Positions 2,012 through 43,590 of a stretch of DNA of 44,044 bases are shown here, in pieces (the first letter of the stretch is position 1; each line of letters begins with the position of its first letter). Below the pieces are notes generated by a model, which saw only the letters and a program-made list of their open reading frames with translations, was not told the DNA's origin and searched no databases. This stretch comes from Candidatus Woesearchaeota archaeon. GTDB lineage: Archaea > Nanobdellota > Nanobdellia > Pacearchaeales > GW2011-AR1. The stretch spans positions 1-44,044 of the forward strand of contig CAZTVG010000005.1 in assembly GCA_964617015.1 (NCBI GenBank), written 5' to 3'. The position numbers were made by a program, and so were the translations under genes.

Positions 2012-2034
2012 GTTTGAACGAAATTAAATCAAGC
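2012..2034. repeat. 23-bp dispersed pseudo-palindrome, copy 1
   Basis: GTTTGAACGAAATTAAATCAAGC. Confidence 0.9.
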
Positions 2035-2053
2035 AAACTTGCGCGGTACGTGC

Positions 2054-2383
2054 CTAATTGGGGTCGTTGCCAGTATCAGCGCTATCTTCCTCAGGCATCT
2101 CTCGTTTGCATACTGGACAGATACCAGTGACGCGGGCGACCTCAAACTTGTGCCCCACAAAGATCCATTGGTCAATTAAGTGTTTTGTCGTGAACCACCT
2201 TCCAGAGGGGAGCTTGGTTGCAGGAAGGCCGTGGTATAAGATGTATCTGCGCGCGGTCCAGTAGTTTCGGCCAATATACTCAGCGATGGATGCAATCCCT
2301 TCGAGCATCTCCTCACTGGGATTTCTCAGCGGTTCTGGGCACCAGGGCCTTCTTCGCTCTGCGACTCTTGTTCCTTGATACAT
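2054..2383 (-). CDS. Winged helix-turn-helix DNA-binding protein (excisionase/MerR/Nu1-like) with C-terminal CPVC
   Basis: LEGIASIAEYIGRNYWTARRYILYHGLP...GRWFTTKHLIDQW fits the wHTH pattern. Confidence 0.55.
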   Translation of the reverse strand: MYQGTRVAERRRPWCPEPLRNPSEEMLEGIASIAEYIGRNYWTARRYILYHGLPATKLPSGRWFTTKHLIDQWIFVGHKFEVARVTGICPVCKREMPEEDSADTGNDPN

Positions 2384-2617
2384 TTGCTGATTACCTTGTT
2401 GATTTGGGTTAACTTAGCGAGAACATCCGGAGAGAGATTGCCGTTCCAGATGTCCTGGGCAGTGAAGGTGAGTTTGTCCTTGGTGGGCATAAGGCATTAT
2501 TGCAGAGATAAAGAGGAGTTGCAAGATCGTTTGAACGAGGGTTGGCATTGGTTATATATGTATGCTTATAGCAGGGGTGGGGTGCCCATATATGGGGGAG
2601 GAAATCAACGCTAGTTC

Positions 2618-2640
2618 GTTTGAACGAATTTTAATCAAAC
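2618..2640. repeat. 23-bp dispersed pseudo-palindrome, copy 2 (divergent control region)
   Basis: GTTTGAACGAATTTTAATCAAAC, preceded by CTAGTTC; 2611-2639 is the exact reverse complement of 32917-32945. Confidence 0.9.
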
Positions 2641-2860
2641 AAAGGGGGAGGAGATACAAGGGGGAATTGTAGGAAGAGAGATGGGGGTTCCAAGGGTGTA
2701 CAATACTGTATAAATAATATTTTTTTTATCTCTTAGAAGGAAGAAGGATAATATCTCTTTCATCTATCTCATATTTTCTCCCTCTACCCTTGATTTCTGT
2801 TTACACACACGCACCCACCCCATATAATAATCATACGTACATACATGGATGGGTGAATAG
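2641..2860. promoter_or_regulatory. Divergent control region / strand switch, partly AT-rich
   Basis: Non-coding gap between - and + arms; TGTATAAATAAT (2707-2718) recurs at 43607-43618, each near a repeat copy. Confidence 0.45.
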
Positions 2861-3224
2861 TATGCGAAACATAGTTGATCTAACAGCAGAGGCTGTCAAG
2901 GGGATAAAGGGGGATCTATGGAATGGGGCCAGACAGAAGGAAGTAGCAGAGAAGTACAGGGTAACACAGGCAACAATCAGCCGTATTATGACTGGCAAGC
3001 TGCACCCGCATATCCCTTGGCCCGACGGCTCACTCGTGCAGATGTCTGGACATCAAAGGACAAGGATATATGAGGCAAGGTATATGGGGAGTGAGTTGAA
3101 GCCGGCAACTAACCTACCTCAGGCTGTTATAGATGACATGAAGACATCTATTGGTAAAGTCAGAGCGGAGAAAGCTGAGGAACGCACTAAGGACTTTAAG
3201 AAGATCTTCCCAGATTGGAAATAA
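2790..3224 (+). CDS. Cro/XRE-like helix-turn-helix protein (true start may be ATG 2862, MRNIVDL)
   Basis: GARQKEVAEKYRVTQATISRIMTG is a typical HTH; first gene of the + arm. Confidence 0.65.
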   Translation: MISVYTHAPTPYNNHTYIHGWVNSMRNIVDLTAEAVKGIKGDLWNGARQKEVAEKYRVTQATISRIMTGKLHPHIPWPDGSLVQMSGHQRTRIYEARYMGSELKPATNLPQAVIDDMKTSIGKVRAEKAEERTKDFKKIFPDWK

Positions 3225-3226
3225 TC

Positions 3227-3256
3227 GTTGACAACTTGCTTTAAATATGTCAATGT
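3227..3256 (+). promoter_or_regulatory. Sigma70-like promoter with TTGACA-N14-TGTCAA palindrome
   Basis: GTTGACAACTTGCTTTAAATATGTCAAT; 25/28 identical to 13896-13923. Confidence 0.65.
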
Positions 3257-3261
3257 ATCAT

Positions 3262-3391: not shown

Positions 3392-3485
3392 CTTAACATA
3401 AGGAGAAGTGAACATGAAAGATAAGAAACCTCGCTAATACAAGACCATCCCCTACAAAACTGTTGAACCTTTCCTCCTCAACGCA

Positions 3486-4347: not shown

Positions 4348-4376
4348 TTGACAACTTAACACAACCCACATACAAT
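4348..4376 (+). promoter_or_regulatory. Near-consensus sigma70 promoter
   Basis: TTGACA (4348-4353), 17 nt spacer, TACAAT (4371-4376); AACGGTTGACAACTT shared with 13892-13906. Confidence 0.8.
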
Positions 4377-8103: not shown

Positions 8104-8198
8104 CCTACTCTGATCTTGGGATAGCATTTATCGTGCTGCTAATCCTTGGTCTGACGCTGCTAAACGTCATACTAACAATATGGAGTATATCACAGTGA
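8100..8198 (+). CDS. Single-TM micro-protein (32 aa)
   Basis: GTGA-coupled to the nuclease; hydrophobic LGIAFIVLLILGLTLLNVILTIW; stop overlaps a GTG start of neuC. Confidence 0.5.
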   Translation: MTYSDLGIAFIVLLILGLTLLNVILTIWSISQ

Positions 8199-9328
8199 GA
8201 AGAATAATGGGGTTGACCGGGAAGAGGGGAGGTTACGGAGCTATGCGACCCATGCTGCGTCTAATGAGGGACGACCCTGAACTGGAATTGCAACTAGTTA
8301 CAACTGACATGCACCTAAAGGAGGAATTCGGGTTCACCTTGAACGAGGTAGAGGAGGACTTTGGAGATTCTATTGAGAAGATATTTATGAATATACAAGG
8401 GAGAGAAAGTAGGGCTGAGCAGCTGGCTGAACTCCACTTATGCCTCGCCACGATGTTTGGCCGAAGTGTACCGGATATCTTGGTTCTTATGGGTGATAGA
8501 GCAGAGAGCCTGATCGCAGCCGTTGTTGCAACTCAGTTCAACGTCCCCATCGCCCATATACAAGGGGGCGACACAACAGGAGGTATCGACAATCCCCAGA
8601 GAAACGCGATATCGAAGCTGGCACATGTTCACTTCACTTCGTGCCAGAGGAGTACACACGAACTGTGTATTTTGAACGAACTCCCTTGGCGCATCCACGA
8701 AGTTGGGGATCTCCACATTGATCCTATTGTACAGGGGGACTTTCTTCCGCAAGTCGAGGTGCGTGATAGGCTCGACCTTGGTAAACTAAGCCCTAGTGTT
8801 CCTATTATAACTGTGCTCCAGCACCCAGATACATACAATCCCACTGTATCGGGTGAACAGATGCAAATCACGCTCCAAGGAGTTGCCAGGGCTGTTAGTG
8901 ACAGAAATGTCGTGTGTATCTACCCCTGCTCAGATCAAGGGTACAAAGGGATAATTGACGAGCTAGAAGAATTTAGAGTCTATTCGGGACTGGCCCAAGT
9001 TCACAAGAACCTCCCGTCCCCCCTATTTCTTGGTCTATTAAACGTAACAGACGTGATCGTCGGCAACTCCTCTTCCGGGGTCATAGAGGCTCCATACTTC
9101 GGCCTCCGAGCGGTTGATATAGGCTATAGACAGAAGGGTAGATTGAGTTGCGATCTCACAAAGTGGGTTCCGCATGATTCTAACTTGATAGCCAAGGCCA
9201 TAAAGGAGAGTATAGAGACCGGACCTGGTAAGGTCAACAACACCCTGTATGGTGACGGCCACGCAGGGGAGAGGGTTGTTAAGGTACTCAAGGAACTGGA
9301 GATCAACAACAGGTTACTAAGAAAATGA
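8180..9328 (+). CDS. neuC: UDP-N-acetylglucosamine 2-epimerase, hydrolysing (NeuC family); likely start GTG 8195
   Basis: TGKRGGYG, GDRAE, HIQGGD, DNPQRNAISKLAHVHF, VGNSSSGVIEAP, IGYRQKGR motifs. Confidence 0.9.
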   Translation: MEYITVRRIMGLTGKRGGYGAMRPMLRLMRDDPELELQLVTTDMHLKEEFGFTLNEVEEDFGDSIEKIFMNIQGRESRAEQLAELHLCLATMFGRSVPDILVLMGDRAESLIAAVVATQFNVPIAHIQGGDTTGGIDNPQRNAISKLAHVHFTSCQRSTHELCILNELPWRIHEVGDLHIDPIVQGDFLPQVEVRDRLDLGKLSPSVPIITVLQHPDTYNPTVSGEQMQITLQGVARAVSDRNVVCIYPCSDQGYKGIIDELEEFRVYSGLAQVHKNLPSPLFLGLLNVTDVIVGNSSSGVIEAPYFGLRAVDIGYRQKGRLSCDLTKWVPHDSNLIAKAIKESIETGPGKVNNTLYGDGHAGERVVKVLKELEINNRLLRK

Positions 9329-9408
9329 ACGGAGATCTATTTCGTGTTGTGGCGTTTGTAGTTGTAGTGTGGCTTCTCGTGATCTCCCTCGCTATAAACT
9401 TGCTTTGA
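9325..9408 (+). CDS. Single-TM micro-protein (27 aa)
   Basis: ATGA-coupled to neuC; VVAFVVVVWLLVISLAINLL; stop overlaps repeat copy 4. Confidence 0.5.
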   Translation: MNGDLFRVVAFVVVVWLLVISLAINLL

Positions 9409-9425
9409 TTTAATTTCGTTCAAAC
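9403..9425. repeat. 23-bp repeat, copy 4 (reverse orientation)
   Basis: CTTTGATTTAATTTCGTTCAAAC followed by GAACT. Confidence 0.9.
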
Positions 9426-9437
9426 GAACTTGATATT

Positions 9438-10388
9438 ATGAAAAAGCCTGTTCTCCTTATTCAACCTGATTTAGTGTATCAGGAGAGCACTCTTCAGTAT
9501 ATGTCCGAAGAGTTCTCTCTGATGGGCTACGACGAGCTGGATAGTGAGAACTCCAACTTAGTGACAGTCATCTTCGCACCAAGACCATTCCCACTTGGTC
9601 TCTTCGTTAGAGACTTCCCAAATCTCAAGGTGATCGTATCCAACACAACATCCGTTGACCATCTCCCTATTAAAGAGGCAGAAGAAAGGGGAATAAAGAT
9701 AATCTCTCTCACTGACGACCGTGAGTTTCTTGAACAGATAACATGCACGGCTGAACACACGCTGGGTCTTATTATGGCAGCACACAGGAGGATACCAGCA
9801 GCTCATGCTGATGTGTGCGAGGGGAACTGGGATCGGACGAAGTGGAGGGCACCAAGGATGCTCTCTAAGATGAACCTTGGTGTGGTAGGAGCGGGCAGAG
9901 TAGGAGCCCACGTTGCCGGTATATGCAGTGGTATCTTCGAGTTAGTAAGGTGGTACGATCCCTATTACGACCCTAATTGGCTGGCCCCCTTATTCTACAA
10001 AGGCAAGGAGAGGGCCCACTCCCTGAACGGACTTGCCATCGATACGGATGTCCTCTGTATCTGTGCTGGACCGAGACAGGGGAGTATGGAGGTCATAGAT
10101 AGAGAGGTTCTCCGCCACCTTCGTCCAGGCGCAATAGTCGTCAACACAGCTCGCGCCGGACTTCTAGATGAGGATGCCCTGATTGACCTCCTTATAAGTG
10201 GTCATGTCCGTGCAGCTGCCCTCGATACTGCAAAGGGAGAGCCCCAAATATCCCCTAAGCTCGTGGCCTACGCGCAAGCTAGCAACAACCTCATCCTCAC
10301 CCCTCACATAGCTGGCTCAACAGAGGACGCCCTTGCCACGACTGAGAGGAGGGTGCTGGAGAAGGCACTGGAGACCCTAAATGGATAG
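9438..10388 (+). CDS. D-isomer-specific 2-hydroxyacid dehydrogenase (SerA-like fold)
   Basis: NTTSVDH, TAEHTLGLI, GVVGAGRVG Rossmann motif, VVNTARAG, ALDTAKGEP, LILTPHIAG. Confidence 0.9.
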   Translation: MKKPVLLIQPDLVYQESTLQYMSEEFSLMGYDELDSENSNLVTVIFAPRPFPLGLFVRDFPNLKVIVSNTTSVDHLPIKEAEERGIKIISLTDDREFLEQITCTAEHTLGLIMAAHRRIPAAHADVCEGNWDRTKWRAPRMLSKMNLGVVGAGRVGAHVAGICSGIFELVRWYDPYYDPNWLAPLFYKGKERAHSLNGLAIDTDVLCICAGPRQGSMEVIDREVLRHLRPGAIVVNTARAGLLDEDALIDLLISGHVRAAALDTAKGEPQISPKLVAYAQASNNLILTPHIAGSTEDALATTERRVLEKALETLNG

Positions 10389-10662
10389 GCAGAAAGTAAG
10401 TAAAGCAACATTAGAAAGGTTCGGAGGTGAAGTGACGAGGATAGCTGAAACTCTGGGACTGGACAATGAAAACTTCCTGAAATGTCTGCTAATAGTAGCT
10501 GCTTGGGTGTTCGTCCATGATAATCCAGAGCAATCGGATGAAGCTATTATAAGTAAGTTGTCCGATAGAAAGTTGTTAGGGCTATCCATATCTGTAGCAA
10601 GGGGTGTAGAGGGAGATTCCCACAGTGCAATGGATACCCCCTCTTGGGAGACGATACATTGA
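10381..10662 (+). CDS. Hypothetical protein (93 aa)
   Basis: Overlaps both neighbours, same strand. Confidence 0.5.
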   Translation: MDRQKVSKATLERFGGEVTRIAETLGLDNENFLKCLLIVAAWVFVHDNPEQSDEAIISKLSDRKLLGLSISVARGVEGDSHSAMDTPSWETIH

Positions 10663-11432
10663 AATTAACAATCTTAGTCCCCGCACGAGGAGAATCTAAA
10701 AACGTAATGCCTGTGAACGGCATCCCACTGGTTAAATACGCCCTTGCTGTCGCAGACAGGATCACCTCAGCAGGGGAGGTAAGCTACGGGACGATACACG
10801 GGATCGAAGGAGAAGCAGCAACTGCTACAACCACAGAGAGTAACATAAAGGCCTTCTGTTCAACGAACGACCTAACTATAATCCCGATGATTAAGAAATA
10901 CTCGTATGTCGCCCTGGACCACAGGCCACCCATGTACTGTCAAGGGGACCGGGGTGTTCACAACTGGGTTGCCGATTACTTTCTCCCTCGCTATGGCACT
11001 CCAGACTACCTAGCTCTAATTCAGCCAACCAATCCGTTTGTATCAGTCGGTGTGTTTGAGAAGGCTCTCCTGGCAATCTCGTCTGGGAGGAGGGACGTAG
11101 CATCTGTTCAGACAGTACATCAAGTTCCCCACATATATCACGCCTGGAATCAACGGCGCCGCCTTGGTGGTAGAGCCAACAGGACAGTGGAGTGGGTGTT
11201 CCCAAAAGTGGGAAAAACAAGCTGGGGTAAGGAAGGGAAACCGGAGTATTATGCATTTAGCAATCTTGTTATCGTCAAACCAGATGCCCTGATAGAACAG
11301 AAGACATTCTTCGCAGAGCCATCTATACCGTTGGTGGTGTCGAGGGCAGAGTCACTCGACATCGACACCCTTGAAGATGTTGCTGTTGCTGAGACGTATA
11401 TCAGGGAAAAGTTGGTGGAGGTCTATATATGA
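10644..11432 (+). CDS. neuA: Acylneuraminate cytidylyltransferase (NeuA/CMP-nonulosonate synthetase family), divergent P-loop
   Basis: LVPARGESK, NGIPLVKY, LIQPTNPF, LDIDTLED motifs. Confidence 0.8.
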   Translation: MGDDTLKLTILVPARGESKNVMPVNGIPLVKYALAVADRITSAGEVSYGTIHGIEGEAATATTTESNIKAFCSTNDLTIIPMIKKYSYVALDHRPPMYCQGDRGVHNWVADYFLPRYGTPDYLALIQPTNPFVSVGVFEKALLAISSGRRDVASVQTVHQVPHIYHAWNQRRRLGGRANRTVEWVFPKVGKTSWGKEGKPEYYAFSNLVIVKPDALIEQKTFFAEPSIPLVVSRAESLDIDTLEDVAVAETYIREKLVEVYI

Positions 11433-12586
11433 AAATCTTGATTCTGGGTGGAGCTGGGTATTTAGGCTGGCCGAGCGCGTTGTACCTCGCAGCAAGGGAC
11501 CATGAAGTGGGGATAGTAGATAACATCGTGAAGGAGAAGTGGGAGAAGATAGCTGGTGTCAAGCCTCTAGAACCCTATGTTCTCATGGTCAATCGTATGA
11601 AGGCGTGGGATGAGCGGGAACGCTGGCTCCAAGGCATGAGTCATATAGGTATAGATATCAGCGCCGAGCCCGGTCTGCTAAGTAAGAATCTGCGCCTTCT
11701 CAAACCCGAAGTGATAATCCACTACGCAGAACAACCGTCTGCTCCTTACTCCATGATGAACGACTCTGCCTGTTATGAGACCCAAAGGAACAATATACTC
11801 GGTACACTGAATCTCATACTGGCTGTTAGGGAGTGTTGTCCAGACGCACATATTGTTAAACTGGGTACAATGGGTGAGTACGGAGTGCCTAATATAGATA
11901 TAGAGGAAGGCTGGTTGGATGTTGAATATAAAGGGAGAAAGGACAACGTACTATTTCCCAAGAGGCCAGGATCTTTCTATCACTTGTCCAAAGTGCATGA
12001 CAGCCATAACCTTGAGTTTGCGTGTAGGACATGGGGACTTAGGGTCACTGATCTCAACCAAGGTATCGTTTACGGAACAGGGACGGTGGAGACAGACTTA
12101 CATCCAAATCTCCGAACCAGTTTCCACTACGACCACATCTTCGGGACTGTCCTAAACCGCTTTGTGACAGAAGCCGCTCTGGAACTCCCCTTGACAGTGT
12201 ACGGAAGTGGGAACCAGAGGAGGTGCTTCATCAGTATACTCGACGTAATGAAGTGTATTGAGCTAGTCTGCCTCAACCCACCCGCACCTGGGGAGTTCAG
12301 GGTATTTAATCAGTTCACAGAGGTAATTTCCCTCAAGAGGCTTGCTGTTCTGGTATCTGGAGTTGCCAAGTGTATGGGTCTGACGGGGAGTGTGGCAAAT
12401 CTAGAGAACCCAAGAGTTGAGAGTGAGGACCACTATTATAACCCCTCCAACAGCTCCCTTCTAGGAATGGGACTTGAACCCCACGAGTTGTCGAGTGATA
12501 GGATTGAACAGATGATACACTTTGTATACAAGAGGCGGGAGCTGGTTAACACCTCAACCCTCAATCCAAGGGTGGGATGGAGGTGA
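11429..12586 (+). CDS. sqdB: UDP-sulfoquinovose synthase (SqdB/SQD1/Agl3 family)
   Basis: GGAGYLGW, HYAEQPSAPYSM, KLGTMGEYG, PGSFYHLSKVHDSHN, TDLNQGIVYG, FGTVLNRF are diagnostic of the family. Confidence 0.92.
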   Translation: MKILILGGAGYLGWPSALYLAARDHEVGIVDNIVKEKWEKIAGVKPLEPYVLMVNRMKAWDERERWLQGMSHIGIDISAEPGLLSKNLRLLKPEVIIHYAEQPSAPYSMMNDSACYETQRNNILGTLNLILAVRECCPDAHIVKLGTMGEYGVPNIDIEEGWLDVEYKGRKDNVLFPKRPGSFYHLSKVHDSHNLEFACRTWGLRVTDLNQGIVYGTGTVETDLHPNLRTSFHYDHIFGTVLNRFVTEAALELPLTVYGSGNQRRCFISILDVMKCIELVCLNPPAPGEFRVFNQFTEVISLKRLAVLVSGVAKCMGLTGSVANLENPRVESEDHYYNPSNSSLLGMGLEPHELSSDRIEQMIHFVYKRRELVNTSTLNPRVGWR

Positions 12587-12690
12587 TAGGACCGAATTTC
12601 AAGTTCTGGAAATATGACGGAACAGACTGGCTCTTTGCAATCGTTATACTTCTGCTACTTGGACTCGGCACATTGGAGTGGATGCAATAA
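12583..12690 (+). CDS. Single-TM micro-protein (35 aa)
   Basis: GTGA-coupled to sqdB; WLFAIVILLLLGLGTLEW. Confidence 0.5.
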   Translation: MIGPNFKFWKYDGTDWLFAIVILLLLGLGTLEWMQ

Positions 12691-13895: not shown

Positions 13896-13925
13896 GTTGA
13901 CAACTTGGGATAAATATGTCAATAT
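13896..13925 (+). promoter_or_regulatory. Sigma70-like promoter with TTGACA-N14-TGTCAA palindrome, second copy
   Basis: GTTGACAACTTGGGATAAATATGTCAAT immediately after the deaminase stop. Confidence 0.65.
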
Positions 13926-13953
13926 ACGTGAACATACAGAACACAGGTGAGAA

Positions 13954-16415: not shown

Positions 16416-16647
16416 CGATCTTGTTAAAGCACTTGAGAAGAAAACCCAGGAGGAGTTGTACGAGCATATCCGAGGGATAAGAACAGACCGCAAACTGACA
16501 AAAGTCCCAGTAAGAGTCGCAAGGGCTAAGAGGACAGCCCCCTTAAAACTCGTAGTTCGCTTTGGAAATATGACAGAGGAGGAACAAGCCGCCTTCCTCA
16601 AGTCAGTGGAGAAACTTAATGAAGGCAAAGCTGGTAAAGGTAAATGA
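16402..16647 (+). CDS. Basic hypothetical protein (81 aa)
   Basis: Overlapping chain of + ORFs. Confidence 0.55.
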   Translation: MPRLDDLVKALEKKTQEELYEHIRGIRTDRKLTKVPVRVARAKRTAPLKLVVRFGNMTEEEQAAFLKSVEKLNEGKAGKGK

Positions 16648-17887
16648 AGTAAGGGTTGGAAAAAGATTTCGAGAAGAGTTTGGAGAAATGGAGGCTCTAG
16701 CTGCCTCTATCAAGGAGAAAGGAGTTGTCCAGCCAATAGCGGTTGATGGCTCTCTAAACCTGTTAGCCGGAGGTAGACGGCTGAGGGCGTGTGAAATGGC
16801 TGGGTTGGAGACAATCCCAGCTATTATATTGGATATAGATGAAGGGGAACTATCGCAACGTGAGATCGAGTTGATTGAGAACACACTGAGAAAGGATTTA
16901 AAATGGCAAGAGCTAGCCGCACTTGAGGAGAGGATATTTGAGTTGCGGAAGAAGGAGAACCCGAAGTGGACTGAGCGGGACCACGCCGAACTCATGGGAC
17001 ACTCTCAGTCAACAACACACAGGCGTTTGCAACTAGCATCAGTGTCAAGGGCAATTCCAGAACTCGCTGCGTGTGAGACTGAAGATAAGGCGTGGAAGAC
17101 GTTTAGTAGAATACAAGAGGACATGGCCCTTAGACAGCTCGAAAAGACTATAGATCGGGTTGATGATCCGTCAAAGTGGGCGACTGAAAATTACAAGTTG
17201 GGGGATGCTGTAGAGGGACTAACAAAGGTATCAGCGGGCGTCATGCACCTTGCAGAGGTTGATCCCCCATATGGTATAGGATTAGACGAGAGGAAGAGTA
17301 GGAACATAGATACATCCCCTATGGCCCGATACAACGAGTTAAGTGGGGAGGACTATGTAGGTCTTATTGAGAGGGCATCTGCCCAGGTGTTCAGGATCCT
17401 CCGAAGTAATGCCTTCTGCATCTGGTGGTTTGGTATGACTTGGTATCAGGTCACAATTGATGTACTAAGGGATGCCGGCTTCAAGGTCAACGACACCCCA
17501 GCTATATGGTACAAAGGGAAGGCAGGGCAGACAGCGACCCCTGACACGATGCTTGGATCCTGTTACGAACCATTCTTCATCGCCAGGAAGGGGAAACCTA
17601 AAATGAGGAGGTCTGGAAGAGGAAACGTATTTGACTACCCTGCTCTGCCTCCTACAAGGAAGATACATCCTACCGAGAAGCCACTGGAGTTGATGGTTGA
17701 TATATTAGATACCTTTTCGTATCCGGGGTTTGTTATCGTGTCTCCGTTTCTCGGAAGTGGAGTGACATTGAGAGCGGCGTATAGATTGAGTTTAACTGGG
17801 TTCGGGTTTGACCTTGATGAGGTAACGAGGCTTAGGTTCATTGGGAGGGTTAAGGAGGATAGAGAAGGTGAACTCCCCCTCAACTAG
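16619..17887 (+). CDS. ParB/Spo0J N-domain + HTH fused to an N6-adenine/N4-cytosine DNA methyltransferase
   Basis: GVVQPIAV, LLAGGRRLRA, ELIENTLRKDL (ParB); WTERDHAELMGHSQSTTHRRL (HTH); DPPY, HPTEKP, PFLGSG (beta-class MTase). Confidence 0.88.
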   Translation: MKAKLVKVNEVRVGKRFREEFGEMEALAASIKEKGVVQPIAVDGSLNLLAGGRRLRACEMAGLETIPAIILDIDEGELSQREIELIENTLRKDLKWQELAALEERIFELRKKENPKWTERDHAELMGHSQSTTHRRLQLASVSRAIPELAACETEDKAWKTFSRIQEDMALRQLEKTIDRVDDPSKWATENYKLGDAVEGLTKVSAGVMHLAEVDPPYGIGLDERKSRNIDTSPMARYNELSGEDYVGLIERASAQVFRILRSNAFCIWWFGMTWYQVTIDVLRDAGFKVNDTPAIWYKGKAGQTATPDTMLGSCYEPFFIARKGKPKMRRSGRGNVFDYPALPPTRKIHPTEKPLELMVDILDTFSYPGFVIVSPFLGSGVTLRAAYRLSLTGFGFDLDEVTRLRFIGRVKEDREGELPLN

Positions 17888-23305: not shown

Positions 23306-23328
23306 GTTTGAACGAATTTTAATCAAAC
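23306..23328. repeat. 23-bp repeat, copy 6
   Basis: GTTTGAACGAATTTTAATCAAAC, between the 892-aa gene stop and the lysis genes. Confidence 0.9.
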
Positions 23329-32915: not shown

Positions 32916-32938
32916 CTTTGATTAAAATTCGTTCAAAC
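32916..32938. repeat. 23-bp repeat, copy 7 (reverse orientation)
   Basis: CTTTGATTAAAATTCGTTCAAAC followed by GAACTAG; between adaptor stop and nozzle start. Confidence 0.9.
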
Positions 32939-32941
32939 GAA

Positions 32942-33925
32942 CTAGCCGATTATCAAGCCGGAAGAGGTTCTGAGTGGCTCCCTAGACATAGCCAACTCAT
33001 CCTGTCTGGGAATGATCTTCCCTATATCCCTTCCCATAACCGCCAGGCGATAGCGGTTTTCAGTTGCCATTGCACGGACACCTCTCACAGCGTTTGCCAG
33101 GAATGTACCCGCCCTCGAATCAGACATATCCAAAGAGAGAAAGTACAACCCAATGTCAGCCAACACTCGCCTATACTGCTTAGGTACAACTGGCGTCTCG
33201 GACGCACTATCAGTCAAGTCGGTTGGGAGAAAGTCGTAGTCGTACTCAACGTGGATAAAGTTCCCCGCCTGGTCCGAGTCACCATAGTGACTGAACCGGA
33301 CCTTCGTCTCCGTCACCATCCCGAACGCCTCGGGAACGCCGGGGAGGATGTTTCTAAGAGGGTATAGATTCTCCAGAGAGTCGATATCCATCCCCTCTAT
33401 CTCAGATCTAGTCTGAAACACACTCATAGGGGAGACCACCCTTATAAGATCACTCGCGAGATCATACTCTAAGTTGAACAGTTTATAGTTGGCTGCTGTA
33501 TCTGTATCTCCGGTATACTTATCTCCTAAAGTTACACCAGTGTTTCCAGACGTGTGTGCTGAAACACGAAAGATGTCCTCGTGGCCATCTACCTTAAAGA
33601 ACCACTTATTTACACTCACATTGTTCTTAGCTGCGTCAGTAGGAGCAGCTGACATTGTAACCGAGGTACTATCCTCTGTGACGTTTGCAGTTCCTCCGTC
33701 AACAACAGCTTCAAGTTTCAGGGTGCCAGGTGGATCTTTTCTGAGCCACCACCACTTCTCATTGATCTCAGGATCAATCTCAGCACCTCCGGTTACAAGG
33801 GCCTGCTGAGCACGGTTTAGATACTGGAGTGCCTGGGCGTCAAAGTCGCTTGTTCCGTCAGTTGGCTCACCAGCGCGGAATAGGATATCGTCCACAAGGT
33901 CTTTTGAGTTGGTATAGTTGGCCAT
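32942..33925 (-). CDS. Head-tail adaptor protein (327 aa)
   Basis: ALQYLNRAQ, YDLASD, PEAF, YDYDFLP, VPKQYRRVL pattern of podoviral adaptors; SD AGGAGA. Confidence 0.65.
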   Translation of the reverse strand: MANYTNSKDLVDDILFRAGEPTDGTSDFDAQALQYLNRAQQALVTGGAEIDPEINEKWWWLRKDPPGTLKLEAVVDGGTANVTEDSTSVTMSAAPTDAAKNNVSVNKWFFKVDGHEDIFRVSAHTSGNTGVTLGDKYTGDTDTAANYKLFNLEYDLASDLIRVVSPMSVFQTRSEIEGMDIDSLENLYPLRNILPGVPEAFGMVTETKVRFSHYGDSDQAGNFIHVEYDYDFLPTDLTDSASETPVVPKQYRRVLADIGLYFLSLDMSDSRAGTFLANAVRGVRAMATENRYRLAVMGRDIGKIIPRQDELAMSREPLRTSSGLIIG

Positions 33926-34236: not shown

Positions 34237-34623
34237 TCACGCCTTACTGACAATCATGACGGTCAGGTTCGCACCAGTGGTCACAGTGGAAGCCCGGCAT
34301 CTGATGTGTACAGGGTTTTCCCTAATTACCTTCACCAGGTCGCCTGTGACAAGCAGGTCTCCGTCTGTTGGGGTCGTCAACGTGATGTACGTCGGGGGGG
34401 TAGCATCATCTGGCCTCCCAGACGGAGGGTCATTCGATCCCTCGATTACAACCCTAGACGACACTGTTGATACGGTGGCAAATCCTCTTACGTGAACGAC
34501 CTTTTCAGGGAGTCCTGGGGCGACTAGACTATTGCTGAAACCTGTTGCTGTTACAGTCCACTGGATACGGTGGACACCCGGTGCGATCCACACACCTCCA
34601 GAAATAAAAGCAGCAGTTGCCAT
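34237..34623 (-). CDS. Thr-rich beta-sandwich virion protein (128 aa)
   Basis: VVIEGSND...YITL pattern; SD GAGGAGG; TAATG-coupled. Confidence 0.6.
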   Translation of the reverse strand: MATAAFISGGVWIAPGVHRIQWTVTATGFSNSLVAPGLPEKVVHVRGFATVSTVSSRVVIEGSNDPPSGRPDDATPPTYITLTTPTDGDLLVTGDLVKVIRENPVHIRCRASTVTTGANLTVMIVSKA

Positions 34624-35006
34624 TACCTATGTTCCTCCTCGGATCCGGCGGCAGTTTGTTTGATTAAATTTCGTTCAACCGAACTTGCGGATTTCTTTGA
34701 CTTGGGCTTACGTTCCTCAGGTAGAACCAACCCAGTGTTGGCCCTTGCCTCTTTGGGGATCTTCCTCGCCTCCTCCCAGAACCACTCTTGCACATCGTCA
34801 GGCTTGATCCTATCACCCCCATCCGAGTAAAACACACCAGCCTGGCATATCACAGGAGGCTTACCCGGCTCAAGAATAACCTTCCCATCAGGTGAGTATA
34901 CATTCCCCTTGACAATGCGCACGTAAGGGGTCTTCTTTACCAGACGAACCTCACTGGTTCCAGGAACACGCTGATAATCATGCACCTTTTCGAGATTTAA
35001 TCCCAC
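34623..35006 (-). CDS. Hypothetical head-module protein (127 aa)
   Basis: SD AGGAGA; contains repeat copy 8 near 3' end. Confidence 0.6.
   Translation of the reverse strand: MGLNLEKVHDYQRVPGTSEVRLVKKTPYVRIVKGNVYSPDGKVILEPGKPPVICQAGVFYSDGGDRIKPDDVQEWFWEEARKIPKEARANTGLVLPEERKPKSKKSASSVERNLIKQTAAGSEEEHR
34658..34680. repeat. 23-bp repeat, copy 8 (reverse orientation, inside CDS)
   Basis: GTTTGATTAAATTTCGTTCAACC followed by GAACT. Confidence 0.85.
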
Positions 35007-39660: not shown

Positions 39661-41613
39661 TCAACCCACCATACCAGTCATTGGATTAGCCGCTTGGTTA
39701 ATTTCAGCAGGTAGAGCAGGCTCACCAGTCTGCTCCGCACTCGGGCCTGCGCCGCCAGTCCTACTTCCAGGTCCAGCAAGTCCAGAGAAGACCGTAGCCA
39801 TTTCCCGCATGTCCTGGCCTAGACGAGCCAGCTCCTCAGGTGATTTCTCCATACTCTCAGGGTCAATATTGAGGGACTTCATCAACCACTTGAGGGTCTT
39901 CTCAGCGCTGAACTTCTTAGCGAACACCTGCATCAGCATGGGGTTGACCATCACCGCTTGCATGAGGGCCATGTACTTCTGGAAGTCCCTAACCCTTCCG
40001 AGGGTTGAAGAGAGACCACTTACCTTAAACTGACAGCGGGTGGCGAATAGGGCAAAGCGTTCAGGGGGAGAGAGGCGAAGGAGTGCCATAGCGGCTCTTG
40101 GACCTATAGCCCCTACAACCTGTTCGCTTGAGAGATCATCTGCGTTCTGAAGAATTGTGAGCCAGGACTTCCTGATAACCTTCTTCATCAGACCGCTCTC
40201 AAGATCAGAAGCCAGAGCGTCGAGTGTGATCGCTTGGCTCTGTTGAGCCTCGACAATCTCTGTGGCGAGGACTTGCTTAGGGGGGAGTTGACCCAGACTA
40301 ATCTCGTTGGCAAGCACAGCTGCGTTAAACTCCCTAACCAACATCTCAAACACAGCCATTGTGTCTGGAGGAACCTCCCCCTCAGTTACAGTCTCCAAGA
40401 CCTTCACACCCGCTGGTGTATCACTGTCTATGATGAGGGTTTCCCCTTGAGGTATACCACCTGACACCTGAGATGGTTCAATCAGTTTGTCCAACCTCAA
40501 CTGTTTCACCCCCCACACACCCGCTATCCCCCCATCGAGCATGAGGTTGAACAGTTGGTTGAGAGCGAGATTGAGGGGAGATCCGTGATCGTATAGGGCC
40601 TTGTGCCACACTGATAGGGGAACGCGCAAGAGGGGTTCTGCAATAAAAGGGCTCTCTTGGTGCCAGAACGGGTTGGGCTCAGGGGGACGGATTAGATACC
40701 TCTCATTTGCTACAGCAGCGAGGACGTTTTTGGTTACAACTCTTCCATCTGGGCCAAGAATTGTTCCCCAGAACTCATCTATGACGACACGCTTCCTGAA
40801 ACCGGGCGCGAGCGGACTATCAGGGGCGACCTCCGGCTTTTTGCGCTTTTCGTCCTCAGTTCGTGCGAAGTCGACCTCTATACTGTTGACCGCAGCAAGA
40901 TCATATATACCATCCTCTGCAGCCTCAACAACGTCGTAGAGGTCACGTTCCGAACGGTGGATCTCGTACAACCTTCTCCCAGTTGGATCAGGATAATAGT
41001 CCTCCGCAGCTATATTGTCTATCCTCAACCTCCAGGAAGATACCTCGTCCGACTTGAGTTCAGGGGTGCCCTGTGTAACTTGACCACTCTGTGCATCTAC
41101 AAGAGGTATACCAGGTTCAACAAAGAACTTCCTCTCTTTTACGTTCCTCCCGTACACCTTGAGGATGATAAGGGACTCAAGGAGCCCCATCTTAACCCCG
41201 TCGGATACAACCAAGGGGAACGATGTGCTATCTTGAGGGCCCACAGGGAGGTTGTTTAGATAACAGAGGATTAACTTTCTAATCTGTTCCGGAGTTATTA
41301 ACTGCTCAACCCCCTCCACAATCTCAACAGAGAACCAGTCTCCGAACTGGATCAGGGCGCGCTTTATGAAAGCTGAAAACTGCTCAACTGCAACGGGTGT
41401 TTTAGGGAGAAACTCCTTACTCTGCCCCTTGGTCTTCTTTGACCAGTCCTGGATACCAAGATAGGCATCCCGGTTCACCTTGTTTAGCCTGACACGCTCC
41501 TTACGCGCCTGATCCGCCTCATGGCGGTACTGGTTTATCGCATCTATAACTGTGAGATCAACCCCCTGGGCAACAGGGCGGTCATCTCCTGCTCTACGTC
41601 GTGGAGCTGCCAT
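39661..41613 (-). CDS. Portal protein (650 aa)
   Basis: Size, position between TerL and scaffold; EFWGTI, PFIAEP, ATEIVEAQQ patterns. Confidence 0.85.
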   Translation of the reverse strand: MAAPRRRAGDDRPVAQGVDLTVIDAINQYRHEADQARKERVRLNKVNRDAYLGIQDWSKKTKGQSKEFLPKTPVAVEQFSAFIKRALIQFGDWFSVEIVEGVEQLITPEQIRKLILCYLNNLPVGPQDSTSFPLVVSDGVKMGLLESLIILKVYGRNVKERKFFVEPGIPLVDAQSGQVTQGTPELKSDEVSSWRLRIDNIAAEDYYPDPTGRRLYEIHRSERDLYDVVEAAEDGIYDLAAVNSIEVDFARTEDEKRKKPEVAPDSPLAPGFRKRVVIDEFWGTILGPDGRVVTKNVLAAVANERYLIRPPEPNPFWHQESPFIAEPLLRVPLSVWHKALYDHGSPLNLALNQLFNLMLDGGIAGVWGVKQLRLDKLIEPSQVSGGIPQGETLIIDSDTPAGVKVLETVTEGEVPPDTMAVFEMLVREFNAAVLANEISLGQLPPKQVLATEIVEAQQSQAITLDALASDLESGLMKKVIRKSWLTILQNADDLSSEQVVGAIGPRAAMALLRLSPPERFALFATRCQFKVSGLSSTLGRVRDFQKYMALMQAVMVNPMLMQVFAKKFSAEKTLKWLMKSLNIDPESMEKSPEELARLGQDMREMATVFSGLAGPGSRTGGAGPSAEQTGEPALPAEINQAANPMTGMVG

Positions 41614-41755
41614 AATGGGGCTTAGGGATCTCTATAACCTGAAACTCGTTTTTGGCAAGACACCAAGGACAAACTCCAATCGCCCTGTGGCCTCCCGGTT
41701 CAAGAGGGACGCCACAGCAACGGCAGGGGATGAAGTCCTGTTCATCAGGGGGCAC
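41594..41755 (-). CDS. Small zinc-finger protein (53 aa), not in ORF track
   Basis: GTG start; PCRCCG...CPWC; overlaps the portal start. Confidence 0.4.
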   Translation of the reverse strand: MPPDEQDFIPCRCCGVPLEPGGHRAIGVCPWCLAKNEFQVIEIPKPHYGSSTT

Positions 41756-41803
41756 CTTCTGATATTATCCTGTGACTTTCCCGCTGTCCATACATTCACC
41801 TAT

Positions 41804-41826
41804 GTTTGAACGAAATTAAATCAAAC
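41804..41826. repeat. 23-bp repeat, copy 9
   Basis: GTTTGAACGAAATTAAATCAAAC, 3 nt from the TerL stop. Confidence 0.9.
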
Positions 41827-41829
41827 GAC

Positions 41830-43302
41830 CTAACCTGAGCCATATGAGGGAAGGGGAATGGTCTTGGGTTGGTGGCGCGTCCAGAGGCGAGTGGGTCTAA
41901 CTGGGGCTTCGTATGAAATCCAATACCCCAGAGCGTCAGATGTATGCGTTCTCCTGAAGTAAGGGTCACGCCTGTTGGTTGTCTTTTTTATCTTGTTCCT
42001 GACATCCCTCTGGACGATTTCGAGATCCTCTATCAACTCCTTACACGATGGATCAATCTCCAGCCTGATCTCCCCCATCTCATCCTTACATAGGAGATTA
42101 ACTGCGTTTACACGGTCTGATATAGATGGGTTTACCTCTGGAACCTTTATCTTTACAGGAACGGGATAGGTCTTCATTTCGTTTCTGATTATCGTGTAAC
42201 TGCTCTCTTGTGTCTGAGCCGTGCGGTGGCGACCAGTTGCATCCCCATACACCCAGACCTCAGCAAGATGTTGAGGATGTACCTCGCGGAACCACTCTAC
42301 CATACCAGGTATACTGCCCTCGTCTGTGACAAGCTCTCTAAATACCCTGAACACTTGCCTTCCGTGACTGGTATCCTGTTGTCCTATAAGGGAAACCATT
42401 GGTTCCACGTTGAAGTCCCAGATCCAGCAAAGAGGTCTGCGTGGGTTGAAGTAGGAGGCCTGTTTCCTGACATTCAAGAGGCGATTGAATCCAGTGTATG
42501 CCCTCGCGCCAGCCATTCCAGGGAGCCACTCCCCATTCAACCTGATCCTCCTTTCAACAGAGTCCTCTGGATACTTGGCCTCAAGACGCCTGATCTCATC
42601 AGGAGGGAGATGGGGATTGTCGTATATAGAGGCGCTGAACAGCTTTAACCTGGGGCGCTCTCCATCCTGCCAGGGCTTGATTATCTTGGGATACATCCAG
42701 GATACGCCACCAACAGTCCCCTCGGGCGGCAATAAGGTTACACTTCCGAATATATGTAGTTTCCCCGCACCAACTCGTATAGTTGCTTCATCGTACACAT
42801 CATAGGGGTGCTCTTCGTCAAAGTGGAGCCAGTCCTTCTCAGCTCCCTGGTATTTCAATCTTCCACTATCTGCGCTCTTAAAACCTATAATAGATCCGTT
42901 CTTCAACTTCAAGATCCTATCTGTAACTCTCCACTCCTCAATCTCCCTATTGGGGATGAATGGAGGATGGATAGCACCAGGGGACACAAACCCATTATCA
43001 AAGTACTTAGGTTCAATCACATCCCTGCTAGTGGGGAAGTCGAGGGAGGAAACCCAACCAGAGGTTGGCCTCCCACCCAGACCGAATCGCGCAAATGTCC
43101 CACCGATATACGCACCTGCATCTGACTTTCCAGATCGGTTAGCCGCAAACATCCATACCTCATCCCATTCCCCAGATAGTACTGCATCTATGAACATCCT
43201 CTGCTTGGGGTGGGGTTCGAAGTTATGGATGGGATCTGACCTCCTGCGCTCAAGCAGAGCCTCAGATACTGCAACTAGACTATCTTGTATATCACGAGTC
43301 AC
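41830..43302 (-). CDS. terL: Terminase large subunit
   Basis: AANRSGKS Walker A, LHFDEEH Walker B, IYDNPHL, WDFNVEP, VYGDATG, HTSDALGY nuclease motifs. Confidence 0.93.
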   Translation of the reverse strand: MTRDIQDSLVAVSEALLERRRSDPIHNFEPHPKQRMFIDAVLSGEWDEVWMFAANRSGKSDAGAYIGGTFARFGLGGRPTSGWVSSLDFPTSRDVIEPKYFDNGFVSPGAIHPPFIPNREIEEWRVTDRILKLKNGSIIGFKSADSGRLKYQGAEKDWLHFDEEHPYDVYDEATIRVGAGKLHIFGSVTLLPPEGTVGGVSWMYPKIIKPWQDGERPRLKLFSASIYDNPHLPPDEIRRLEAKYPEDSVERRIRLNGEWLPGMAGARAYTGFNRLLNVRKQASYFNPRRPLCWIWDFNVEPMVSLIGQQDTSHGRQVFRVFRELVTDEGSIPGMVEWFREVHPQHLAEVWVYGDATGRHRTAQTQESSYTIIRNEMKTYPVPVKIKVPEVNPSISDRVNAVNLLCKDEMGEIRLEIDPSCKELIEDLEIVQRDVRNKIKKTTNRRDPYFRRTHTSDALGYWISYEAPVRPTRLWTRHQPKTIPLPSYGSG

Positions 43303-43534
43303 GCCAGCCTCTTAGCAATAAGTTCATCCCAACTTTCCGTAGAAACGGCAACCTGACTCTGATCTGTGCCCACCTTCCCTGAGGGTTGCGTGCCAGGAAA
43401 AGGAATGGTGTGTCTATGTAGAGTGTCCTCTTTGTCACCGCCCAATCAAGTTCAAGTCCTGGAACCCGAAGGTGTCTATCCCCATATTCCCCTCTCCACG
43501 AGGAGAACCTCCGTCTGTGTGGATTACGAGTCAC
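43292..43534 (-). CDS. Hypothetical protein (80 aa)
   Basis: Overlaps TerL start on the same strand. Confidence 0.45.
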   Translation of the reverse strand: MTRNPHRRRFSSWRGEYGDRHLRVPGLELDWAVTKRTLYIDTPFLFLARNPQGRWAQIRVRLPFLRKVGMNLLLRGWRDS

Positions 43535-43567
43535 TTCTCGCCTCCCTTGAACAACAGCCCCCAGTTC

Positions 43568-43590
43568 GTTTGATTAAAATTCGTTCAAAC
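43568..43590. repeat. 23-bp repeat, copy 10 (reverse orientation)
   Basis: GTTTGATTAAAATTCGTTCAAAC preceded by CCAGTTC; at the -/+ strand switch. Confidence 0.9.

Follow-up and report, generated by a model that had tools for sequence, protein, structure and literature searches.

The window, a stretch of 44,044 nucleotides that represents the 44-kb genome of an uncultured phage, contains exactly ten palindrome-like 23-bp sites that are real, dispersed and selected at the DNA level. The explanation that we favour, with about even confidence and from sequence, is that, on double-stranded DNA, they act in the manner of parS as places where a candidate reader encoded by the phage itself would bind or load; this reader is a fusion of a ParB N-terminal domain, a helix-turn-helix (HTH) and a DNA methyltransferase (ParB-MTase). 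If so, ten sites at spacings of 0.6-9.6 kb would cover the 44-kb genome.

Ten dispersed sites in the window

All ten sites lie where the original prediction had placed them (Table 1). With a weight matrix built from the ten, each site scores at least 42, against 6 for the runner-up position in the window; none would be expected by chance. The 23-mer consensus with at most one mismatch matches eight of them, against zero matches in 100 shuffles. Common to all ten is a 17-bp dyad core, TGAAC-N7-RWTCA, within a conserved stretch of about 35 bp (AST-W-N on the left, N-AAST on the right). Two (sites 3 and 5) are perfectly symmetric, as had been noted, and the exact reverse complementarity of 2611-2639 and 32917-32945 was likewise borne out. 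Assembly artefact, raised beforehand as a possible origin of the repeats, is rejected because an independent IMG/VR contig (L007) has sites 9 and 10 identically.

Table 1. Sites in the window, the proposed reader, and dyads of related phages
Feature	Coordinates or source	Strand	Context
Site 1, GTTTGAACGAAATTAAATCAAGC	2012..2034	+	Between minus-strand genes 2054-2383 and 1632-2036
Additional half-site-like element, GATCGTTTGAACGAGGG	2527..2543	+	Adjoins leftward promoter-like site
Site 2, GTTTGAACGAATTTTAATCAAAC	2618..2640	+	Divergent non-coding region 2384-2861
Site 3, symmetric TTGAACGAAATTCGTTCAA	4307..4329	none	18 bp upstream of the -35 of promoter-like TTGACA-17-TACAAT, 4348-4376
Site 4	9403..9425	-	Between NeuC-like epimerase gene 8180-9328 and dehydrogenase gene 9438-10388; 12 nt before ATG
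Site 5, symmetric TTGAACGAAATTCGTTCAA	15813..15835	none	3′ end of ORF 15634-15855; 806 bp upstream of the ParB-MTase gene, a position kept in relatives' gene order
Proposed reader, ParB-MTase	16619..17887	+	ParB N-terminal domain, HTH, methyltransferase
Site 6	23306..23328	+	Between 892-aa tail gene 23337-26015 and lysis genes 23022-23255 and 22487-23044, all minus strand
Site 7	32916..32938	-	Between 32942-33925 (SU10-adaptor-like) and 31323-32906; 9 nt before ATG
Site 8	34658..34680	-	3′ end of ORF 34623-35006; 34 nt before next ATG
Site 9	41804..41826	+	Right after the large terminase (TerL) stop codon, before ORF 41632-41799 and portal gene; position also occupied by a site in relatives L049 and L253
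Site 10	43568..43590	-	In terminase operon leader, between promoter-like 43679-43652 and the operon's first gene (43534)
Dyad TGTTCAAAWWTTGAACA	L093/L143, L152/L298, L363/L364, L253, L280, L341, L346, L371		
Dyad TGCCCAAN3TTGGGCA	L367, L144, L147		
Dyad TGTCCCAANTTGGGACA	Desulfofustis phage OP947158		Eight copies
Dyad TGAAACAAWTTGTTTCA	L366, L374		
Dyad TGAACCAAATTGGTTCA	L376		
Dyad TGTACCAAWTTGGTACA	L375		
Dyad TGATCGKAATCYGATCA	L049		

Eight sites include at most six coding bases each, in a window that is 6.9% non-coding (binomial P = 9e-9). Sites 5 and 8 fall within ORFs, at their 3′ ends, in agreement with the earlier statement that two copies are inside coding sequence. This intergenic enrichment and the retention of two sites in coding sequence argue for selection on the DNA. 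Orientation relative to transcription is mixed, the seven asymmetric sites with a clear local direction being split into four with it and three against. Sites had also been claimed at both divergent strand switches, which holds for site 2 and for neither of the other two concerned: site 10 is in the terminase operon leader, and site 6 is not at a strand switch because the GH108 endolysin gene (22487-23044) is on the minus strand, placing the convergent switch near 22.25 kb.

We consider a role of the sites in RNA, be it as terminators, in RNase processing or as translational operators, to be improbable, and likewise a role as promoters for a phage-modified RNA polymerase. Their intergenic location would suit such roles, four of them end 9-16 nt before a start codon, and the two symmetric sites form stable hairpins (-11 and -16 kcal/mol, z about -6). 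The eight asymmetric sites, however, have weak and dissimilar folds (-3.5 to -8.9 kcal/mol, z -0.7 to -2.5), there is neither a GC-rich stem nor a U-tract, and the mixed orientation means that the transcribed sequence differs between sites. As to promoters, no -35/-10 arrangement occurs in or around the motif, the phage has sigma-70-like TTGACA promoters of its own elsewhere, and no RNA polymerase or sigma gene was found in it.

Three specific kinds of element were tried and rejected: intrinsic terminators (the sites are AT-rich, eight of ten fold weakly and none is listed by a terminator scan), sigma-70 promoters (no pair of hexamers spaced by 16-18 bp within the motif or at a fixed distance from it) and a shared RNA hairpin (asymmetric sites fold differently).

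The candidate reader and competing phage proteins

ParB-MTase turned out to be the best of the binders named in the original prediction, on the basis of its domains, recognised by sequence and predicted fold, and of a recognition helix that co-varies with the dyad. A ParB-type nucleotide-binding domain and a ParB/Noc-type HTH are present. The former (Pfam ParB_N, aa 4-88) has the GGRRLRA box and an ENTLRKDL box of the ENxxR type; the HTH has helices at aa 119-126 and 130-143 (SQSTTHRRLQLA). In place of the canonical ParB C-terminal dimerisation domain there is a CcrM-like beta-class N6/N4 DNA methyltransferase domain (aa about 200-420). With phmmer, aa 8-182 align to Spo0J/ParB/Noc, GGRRLRA box included, and KorB is a weak PDB match. 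Residues E87, N88 and R91 are invariant among 57 homologues, as are R53 and R54. An AlphaFold2 model has a mean pLDDT of 87; in Foldseek searches its N-terminal 190 aa matched Noc/ParB (N-terminal domain plus HTH) and its C-terminus matched CcrM, M.BceJIV and RsrI. No ParA/CbiA-type match was found among the scanned window ORFs or in the gene tables of 12 related loci. ParB-methyltransferase fusions are classed as uncharacterised in the portions of a 2025 PNAS survey drawn on here, which report no nucleotide binding for N6/N4-MTase fusions (PMC12704722).

In the mechanism that we propose, each half of the 17-bp dyad, TGAAC-N7-GTTCA (variant AATCA), would be recognised by one of two HTH domains, with further contacts to the conserved flank of 23-35 bp. 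After binding, the protein would undergo nucleotide-gated clamp closure and spread from each site, as ParB and KorB do. Spreading may place the methyltransferase part on phage DNA in cis, or dampen transcription at operon junctions, that of the ParB-MTase operon included, or both.

An unlikely alternative is an operator network of another dimeric transcription factor of the phage, which would repress or block transcription and so set early and late timing. This role might be filled by the HTH protein 2862-3224, by the excisionase-like HTH_17 protein 2054-2383 or by a small ORF such as 15634-15855. Sites are found at operon junctions and six of the ten surround the early control region, from 41.8 kb to 4.3 kb across the junction; site 10 is downstream of a promoter-like element and site 3 just upstream of one. 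Among relatives, the HTH homologue has a dyad 24 nt ahead of its ATG in L143 and L363, and dyads adjoin the operon of the 2054-2383 homologues, which are annotated HTH_17, in L093 and L363. The HTH gene, listed earlier as 'Cro-like 2790' and probably starting at ATG 2862, makes a poor candidate because its family keeps the same recognition helix, [VI][ST]Q[AP]T[IV]SRI, across phages with TGAAC, TGTTC and TGATC dyads. In addition, L049 and L144 have no dyad upstream of this gene, BLAST gave no homologue in the Desulfofustis phage with eight dyads, and site 2 is about 185 bp upstream of the gene's own promoter-like element. ORF 15634-15855, proposed as a ribbon-helix-helix (RHH) protein, has no Pfam match. 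HTH_17/excisionase-type proteins usually bind direct repeats as monomers, which counts against 2054-2383.

Dyads in relatives and co-variation with the recognition helix

The window's own motif was found in no related phage or metagenome contig, and a search of 185,579 species genomes with the 19-mer core gave only single, chance-level matches. Absence from related phages had been named in advance as evidence against a network; it is literally what we see, but it is misleading, since relatives have lineage-specific 17-bp versions at the same syntenic positions. Many of them have dispersed TG-N13-CA dyads of their own, of the TGTTC.., TGCCC.., TGTCC.., TGAAA.., TGTAC.. and TGATC.. types, often at matching places in the gene order. 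In many phages encoding ParB-MTase, the 17-bp architecture is present in a sequence particular to the lineage. The ParB-MTase gene is preceded by a site, at a distance of 0.3-1.3 kb, in 11 lineages; a site also occurs directly 3′ of the primase gene in seven lineages, after TerL in three and before the small terminase gene (TerS) in two. The dyad-rich contigs L253, L308, L249, L271 and L049 consist of sequence without the early region, where ParB-MTase would be sought. In nine ParB-MTase-encoding loci or genomes of 10-44 kb each (L369, L370, L365, L368, L146, L142, L149, L150 and Microcystis phage Mel-JY34) no multi-copy dyad was seen; having many sites is thus not obligatory, or else the sites are too degenerate to detect.

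An ordinary transcription factor would account just as well for the positions kept at operon junctions.

The relatives also bear on whether the repeats are small selfish or recombinogenic palindromes (MITE- or REP-like, or at module boundaries) that spread between intergenic gaps, a reading to which we give very little credence. Target-site-duplication-like flanks occur at four or five sites, among them CAACTA..CAACTA (23306), CAAGTT..CAAGTT (9403) and ACCTA..ACCTA (41804), and the 29-nt identity between two sites and the positions at gene boundaries point the same way. Flanks of the direct-repeat kind outnumber those of the inverted kind by seven to two, however, which is not significant, and relatives lack such flanks, theirs being palindromic rather than duplicated. 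Moreover, known mobile elements are far larger than 23 bp, and a look for a transposase or RAYT-like gene among the scanned window ORFs gave none. Diverged phages have different dyads at the same syntenic positions, which indicates co-evolution in place.

For ParB-MTase as the reader, one line of comparative evidence is that the start of its recognition helix co-varies with dyad bases 3-5 in about 16 phages: S-[VLP]-[GP] is found with TGTTC, S-K-G/S with TGCCC or TGTCC, S-Q with TGAAC or TGAAA, and A-T with TGTAC. From the window and L366 we predicted that an S-Q helix goes with a TGAA dyad, and picked three further contigs by helix sequence alone. Both S-Q contigs fit (L374 with TGAAA, L376 with TGAAC), and the third, L375, with an A-T helix, has a new dyad type, TGTAC. 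When the HTH segment is left out of the tree, the window falls among the TGCCC and TGTCC phages and apart from the other S-Q/TGAA clade, so the S-Q/TGAA association occurs twice independently; the roughly 16 entries share ancestry, and this is the one clear independent repeat among them. Helices of TGTTC-type phages are fairly varied (SVGAVN, SKGSLS, SPPAVS), and the recognition segment is variable, yet not the most variable part of the protein.

The co-variation also weighs against the dyads being sites of a host factor (a global regulator or nucleoid protein, for example) that the phage exploits, in which case dyad types would reflect different hosts. This is only a slim prospect. TGTTC-N7-GAACA is common to phages with ParB proteins 36-50% identical and with different structural modules (L253 versus L143), and TGTTC/GAACA half-sites presumably resemble the LexA-type boxes of some phyla. 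On the other hand, the dyad type tracks the helix of a phage protein, close relatives by gene content (the window, L367 and L369) differ in dyad type or have no dyads, and the 19-mer core is at chance level in species genomes.

Comparison with known systems

The most likely role of the dispersed sites is docking of ParB-MTase, a combination for which no function had been described. Localized nick sites as in LUZ24-like phages (tf: TACT/RTGMC, on one strand) were considered and rejected, the window sites being palindromic and in both orientations; likeness to the tf consensus is confined to an ACT-ATG flank at three sites.

Cluster A stoperators, offered as an analogy in the original prediction, are also short sites in many dispersed copies near gene ends, and putative phage-protein targets likewise. 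They are 13-14 bp long, asymmetric and aligned along transcription, and their binder is a temperate phage's immunity repressor. The analogy fails, because the window sites are dyad-symmetric with the four-to-three split in orientation, and no integrase, repressor or ParA was found among the scanned window ORFs (small ORFs were partly scanned). A genome-wide network of protein-binding or loading sites acting on the DNA stays the favoured reading, less this analogy and some of the binders.

The N15 prophage has dispersed inverted repeats, including some in late-gene regions, that serve as centromere sites for the ParB-family protein SopB. In N15, a plasmid prophage, there are four such sites and a SopAB partition system, whereas neither a partition ATPase nor any sign of lysogeny was found in the window. 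Chromosomal parS/ParB and NBS/Noc also use palindromic sites of 14-17 bp, several per replicon, and the GxxRxxA and ENxxR boxes of ParB/Noc are conserved in the candidate reader. Half-sites begin with TGTT in parS and in TGTTC-type relatives; that of the window is TGAAC, not TGTTTCAC, and its 17-bp dyad has an odd central base, against lengths of 16 or 14 bp in the chromosomal systems. The window protein has a methyltransferase instead of the chromosomal C-terminal dimerisation domain, no ParA was found, and a segregation role is not expected in a lytic phage.

The KorB operators (OB) of RK2 are, like the window sites, short palindromes scattered round a mobile replicon, and KorB belongs to the ParB family and combines an N-terminal nucleotide-binding domain with an HTH, as does the proposed reader. 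KorB is a CTP-dependent sliding clamp and long-range repressor. OB is 13 bp (TTTAGCSGCTAAA) and KorB works with KorA and IncC/ParA, neither of which was found here; unlike KorB, the candidate reader joins its ParB part to a methyltransferase.

The closest known analogue is in Cluster O mycobacteriophages (Corndog), with more than 30 (34) copies of a 17-bp dyad, TGTTCGGNNNCCGAACA (PMC4351075). Both sets are 17-bp dyads of the TGTTC-N7-GAACA or TG-N13-CA form, dispersed in an apparently lytic phage, mostly intergenic with some coding copies, oriented independently of transcription and unconnected with promoters; each phage has an orphan ParB_N-domain protein (gp90 in Corndog) and no ParA. The sequences do not match (TGAACGAAWTTCGTTCA in the window, with inner GAAWTTC against GG-NNN-CC), copy numbers are 10 and 34, and the relatives' TGTTCAAAWTTTGAACA has only the outer TGTTC/GAACA in common with Cluster O. 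Host phylum and phage lineage are unrelated, and gp90 has no recognisable methyltransferase domain, unlike the ParB protein of the window. The Cluster O repeats are themselves unexplained, and so provide a parallel to the window sites rather than an explanation of them.

Ten sites and their place in the gene map

Allowing one mismatch, the GTTTGAACGAAWTTWAATCAAAC consensus occurs at eight places in the window; 100 dinucleotide-preserving shuffles gave no match. A weight matrix made from the ten copies listed in the original prediction recovers all of them (see table of window features), each scoring at least 42 in one orientation; the next best window position scores only 6, and the number of sites in the 44-kb window is therefore exactly ten. 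The two copies described as symmetric, 4307 and 15813, both read TTGAACGAAATTCGTTCAA, and the exact reverse complementarity of 2611-2639 and 32917-32945 is likewise confirmed. Common to 10/10 sites is a 17-bp core, TGAAC-N7-RWTCA, flanked by less strongly conserved bases (AST-W-N to the left, N-AAST to the right) that bring the total to about 35 bp. Eight sites have a fixed asymmetry, TGAAC being paired with TGATT, and some of the ten have direct-repeat-like flanks.

L007, an independent IMG/VR contig of 4.5 kb, is identical to window 39667-44044 and continues into window 1-93. Sites 41804 and 43568 are both present in it, which rules out an assembly artefact, a concern raised in the original prediction, as the source of the repeats. 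Because the contig runs from the window end into the window start, the genome is circular or circularly permuted. The contig has 42 extra bases between window end and start; the window may lack about 42 bp.

Features of the window, laid out from Pfam and PHROGs scans
Feature	Position	Strand	Remark
Dispersed sites	2012, 2618, 4307, 9403, 15813, 23306, 32916, 34658, 41804, 43568		named by start coordinate
Gene	1632-2036	-	real, kept in relatives
Excisionase-like HTH_17 protein	2054-2383	-	real, kept in relatives
Small HTH protein	2862-3224	+	early/replication block; true start probably ATG 2862
PD-(D/E)XK nuclease	7099	+	
Nonulosonic-acid-type sugar cluster	8180-13454	+	
dCMP deaminase		+	
AAA_24 ATPase		+	
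ParB_N + N6_N4 methyltransferase	16619-17887	+	
HNH-UDG-PolA	17841-19955	+	then PolA C-terminal part
DUF3987 primase	20835	+	
Minus-strand gene block	~22.25 kb to 43.5 kb	-	
GH108 endolysin	22487-23044	-	
Tail genes		-	
Major capsid protein	36747	-	
Portal	39661	-	
TerL	41830	-	

The plus-strand genes of the table, from the small HTH protein to the primase, make up the early and replication block. Non-coding DNA accounts for only 6.9% of the window on this gene map, yet eight sites fall essentially between genes (binomial P = 9e-9); the remaining two, correctly placed inside coding sequence by the original prediction, lie within the last codons of ORFs. Its claim that both strand switches carry sites stands only in part, since the endolysin and other genes on the minus strand put 23306 inside a minus-strand operon, between tail and lysis genes, and not at a switch. 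Seven asymmetric sites have a clear local transcription direction, four lying with it and three against. The ten-site feature is real and under selection.

Some further sequences were noted in passing. At 2527-2543, 90 bp from the second site, the half-site-like TCGTTTGAACGA lies against a promoter-like site pointing left (2524-2496), from which gene 2054-2383 would be transcribed. At 8854-8870, within the NeuC-like gene, TGAACAGATGCAAATCA matches the outer TGAAC-N7-RWTCA frame and not the inner motif, and is probably a chance match. A strong terminator-like hairpin (471-502; 13 pairs, 8 GC, then a T-run) follows ORF 64-462.

The sugar cluster encodes a NeuC-like UDP-GlcNAc 2-epimerase, a 2-hydroxyacid dehydrogenase, an NAD epimerase/dehydratase and NeuB; it is also present in the related loci L367, L369 and L370, there with CTP_transf_3 (CMP-sugar transferase) and ribonucleotide reductase. 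The family A DNA polymerase (17841-20857) is split into two ORFs, the first with the exonuclease and N-terminal part, the second with the C-terminal part; a uracil-DNA-glycosylase-family domain is fused ahead, and relatives share this layout. The HNH_3 endonuclease module before UDG-PolA (17841-18300, the N-terminus of the first ORF) looks like a mobile insertion, because relatives' polymerases align only from about residues 156-170 and other loci match only the HNH part.

Several readings of the sites were rejected. Sigma-70 promoters would need a -35/-10 pair within or at a fixed distance from the sites; there is none, and scans gave background counts. A TTGACA-type promoter-like block, TTGACAACTTG, stands away from the sites at 3228-3257, 4348-4376 and 13897-13926, with further matches at 13120, 23149 (minus strand), five against 0.84 expected; two copies run on into TAAATATGTCAAT and one into a TACAAT -10 element, and these blocks probably serve the phage as early or middle promoters of host type. 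Nor are the sites intrinsic terminators, as promoter and terminator scans tied nothing to them. A common RNA hairpin is excluded by the eight asymmetric sites, whose folds are weak and differ from one another (-3.5 to -8.9 kcal/mol, z -0.7 to -2.5), good folding being limited to the two symmetric ones. The nick sites of the related LUZ24-like phage tf are strand-specific 9-mers, unlike these. We dropped solitary CRISPR-repeat-like units, lox/hix-like recombinase sites, and IHF, FNR, CRP and sigma-E boxes, whose spacing or symmetry we take to be unfit. Conservation of sequence and not structure, together with mixed orientation, points to recognition as double-stranded DNA by a dimeric protein.

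Relatives and their dyads

Megablast of both window halves against 50,697 phage records (INPHARED) found no close relative. In its replication module the phage shows distant similarity to Desulfofustis phage LS06-2018-MD01, Microcystis phage Mel-JY34 and LUZ24/119X-type Pseudomonas phages. Identity to the nearest cultured phages is only 25-32%; the capsid protein has 87 IMG/VR relatives at 53-75% identity. The closest relatives come from marine mesopelagic samples, and the window has no tRNAs that might serve as host clues.

Presence of the motif in related phages, a check named in the original prediction, was not borne out: the weight matrix found the window motif in none of the 87 capsid relatives. 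The motif was also sought in IMG/VR, in 185,579 genomes and in JGI metagenomes, with L007 (the same phage) and chance single matches as the only results, and 241 million metagenome records gave nothing but chance single matches; a loose all-vs-all repeat search (17/20 matches) was too noisy for use. Many relatives have dispersed palindromes of their own, each different from the window motif, and every dyad listed below, like the window core, is a 17-mer TG-N13-CA with dyad symmetry and an A/T-rich centre. On these comparisons, the ten sites are one lineage-specific instance of a family-wide dispersed 17-bp dyad system. As the centres vary among lineages (AAWTT, AANNNTT, CAANTTG), a methyltransferase target inside the dyad is unlikely.

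Dyads of related contigs and loci (L-numbers)
Dyad	Found in
TGTTCAAAWWTTGAACA	two ~47-kb contigs, L093/L143 with at least 6 copies and L152/L244/L298 with at least 7; L253 (6 copies in 14 kb), L363/L364, L280, L308, L341, L346, L371
TGCCCAA-N3-TTGGGCA	L367, L144, L147
TGTCCCAANTTGGGACA	Desulfofustis phage (8 copies)
TGATCGKAATCYGATCA	L049
TGAAACAAWTTGTTTCA	L366, L374
TGAACCAAATTGGTTCA	L376
TGTACCAAWTTGGTACA	L375

The published genome of the Desulfofustis phage (L360, OP947158) has eight copies of a 23-25-bp palindrome, GCTATGTCCCAAnTTGGGACATAGC, at 249, 2251, 7684, 15474, 23059, 29966, 37109 and 41281; they lie at operon junctions, including those upstream of an annotated 'transcriptional regulator', the portal gene and TerS. 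In L049, the non-coding stretch 9461-9800 upstream of the terminase genes is packed with CAGTTTACAAG (three copies) and TGACAGAATCGGTCA (two), and may be a packaging or origin region.

The same gene-order places are occupied by different dyads in different relatives. A dyad lies 0.3-1.3 kb upstream of the gene for ParB-MTase (the ParB_N, HTH and N6_N4 methyltransferase protein), ahead of a few small ORFs, in the window (site 15813, 806 bp) and in ten relatives (L143, L364, L346, L371, L338, L152, L341, L375, L280 and L313). One directly follows the primase gene in L152, L359, L274, L360, L374, L375 and L376, a place where the window has no site; one directly follows TerL in the window (41804), L049 and L253; and one lies upstream of TerS in the window (43568) and L360. 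This is expected of co-evolution in place between site and reader. That the sites are a mobile element is argued against by the same observation, syntenic places being held by lineage-specific dyads.

Candidate readers of the sites

The small HTH protein, the 'Cro-like 2790' of the original prediction, has a dyad 24 nt upstream of its homologue's ATG in L143 and L363, but its case is weakened: the recognition helix, [VI][ST]Q[AP]T[IV]SRI, stays the same whether the phage has TGAAC, TGTTC or TGATC dyads, no dyad lies upstream of the homologue in L049 or L144, and the Desulfofustis phage has no detectable homologue, its 'transcriptional regulator' not being homologous. The HTH_17 protein is possible, with no specific support. 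Pfam found no DNA-binding domains in small ORFs near the sites. An ordinary transcription factor would fit the operon-junction preference of the sites equally well.

ParB-MTase, also among the binders originally proposed, comes out best, on its ParB-type domains and on co-variation between helix and dyad. Over residues 8-182 it aligns to Spo0J/ParB/Noc, the GGRRLRA arginine box included, and the ENxxR-box residues E87, N88 and R91 do not vary among 57 homologues. The protein has roughly 1,250 homologues. The HTH consists of helix 119-126 followed by helix 130-143 (SQSTTHRRLQLA). An AlphaFold2 model has mean pLDDT 87, and Foldseek matches the N-terminal 190 residues to the N-terminal domain plus HTH of Noc and ParB, and the C-terminus to CcrM, M.BceJIV and RsrI.

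The start of the recognition helix varies across the ParB-MTase family and tracks the outer bases of the dyad: S-[VLP]-[GP] goes with TGTTC, S-K-[GS] with TGCCC or TGTCC, S-Q with TGAAC or TGAAA, and A-T with TGTAC, in a table of about 16 entries that are not independent of one another. The helices that go with TGTTC are themselves rather varied. After S-Q/TGAA had been seen in the window and L366, three contigs were picked by helix sequence alone; both S-Q contigs proved to have TGAA dyads (TGAAA in L374, TGAAC in L376), and the A-T contig, L375, had a new type, TGTAC. A neighbour-joining tree with the HTH segment left out places the window with the TGCCC/TGTCC phages, apart from the other S-Q/TGAA clade, so the association appears twice independently. 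No multi-copy dyad was found in 10-44 kb at nine ParB-MTase loci or genomes (L369, L370, L365, L368, L146, L142, L149, L150 and Mel-JY34), and for several dyad-rich contigs (L253, L308, L249, L271 and L049) the available sequence lacks the early region. Recognition of the dyads by the ParB-type HTH of the phage's ParB-MTase is the best-supported mechanism, and we rate its chances as about even.

Proposed working and known systems

Once bound, ParB-MTase might load as a clamp and spread from the dyads, deliver methylation in cis, or bring about silencing of a KorB-like kind. Tentatively, and with the balance tilted against it, we suggest that phage ParB-HTH-MTase fusions act as nucleotide-gated sliding clamps, loading at phage-specific 17-bp dyads and nowhere else and carrying the methyltransferase along the phage chromosome. 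The result would be an epigenetic protection or marking system that the phage addresses to itself, with host DNA left unmodified. Fast helix/dyad co-evolution would keep each lineage's system private, and the Cluster O repeats would be loading sites of this kind too, for a ParB-like protein with a different effector. Should the dyads be loading sites, they would give ParB-MTase fusions a directly testable DNA target, provide natural matched helix/site pairs for decoding how ParB-family HTHs read DNA, and might account for the 17-bp repeats of Cluster O, unexplained since 2015. This would be the first ParB-type site network addressing a DNA-modifying enzyme to one replicon, relevant to phage restriction escape and to tools for marking chosen DNA molecules.

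ParB-fold/N6N4-methyltransferase fusions are described as a phage-enriched architecture, among the commonest phage ParB types and without an assigned function (PMC12704722), and ParB-like activators of phage thymidine dioxygenases have been described (PMC13229309); the excerpts of these two papers draw no link from such proteins to DNA sites.

Dispersed ParB-family or operator-like site networks are of an already known kind. The mycobacteriophage stoperators, offered as an analogy in the original prediction, fail on symmetry, orientation and lifestyle. KorB/OB of plasmid RK2, parS/ParB, NBS/Noc and the N15 SopB repeats are similar in working, but site, partners and biology differ. Among DNA features already described, the closest is the Cluster O mycobacteriophage dyad TGTTCGGNNNCCGAACA, 17 bp long, with 34 copies in Corndog, dispersed, in orientations independent of transcription, without a promoter tie or an assigned function (PMC4351075). 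It has the TGTTC-N7-GAACA frame of the commonest dyad among the relatives here; Corndog also encodes an orphan ParB_N protein, gp90.
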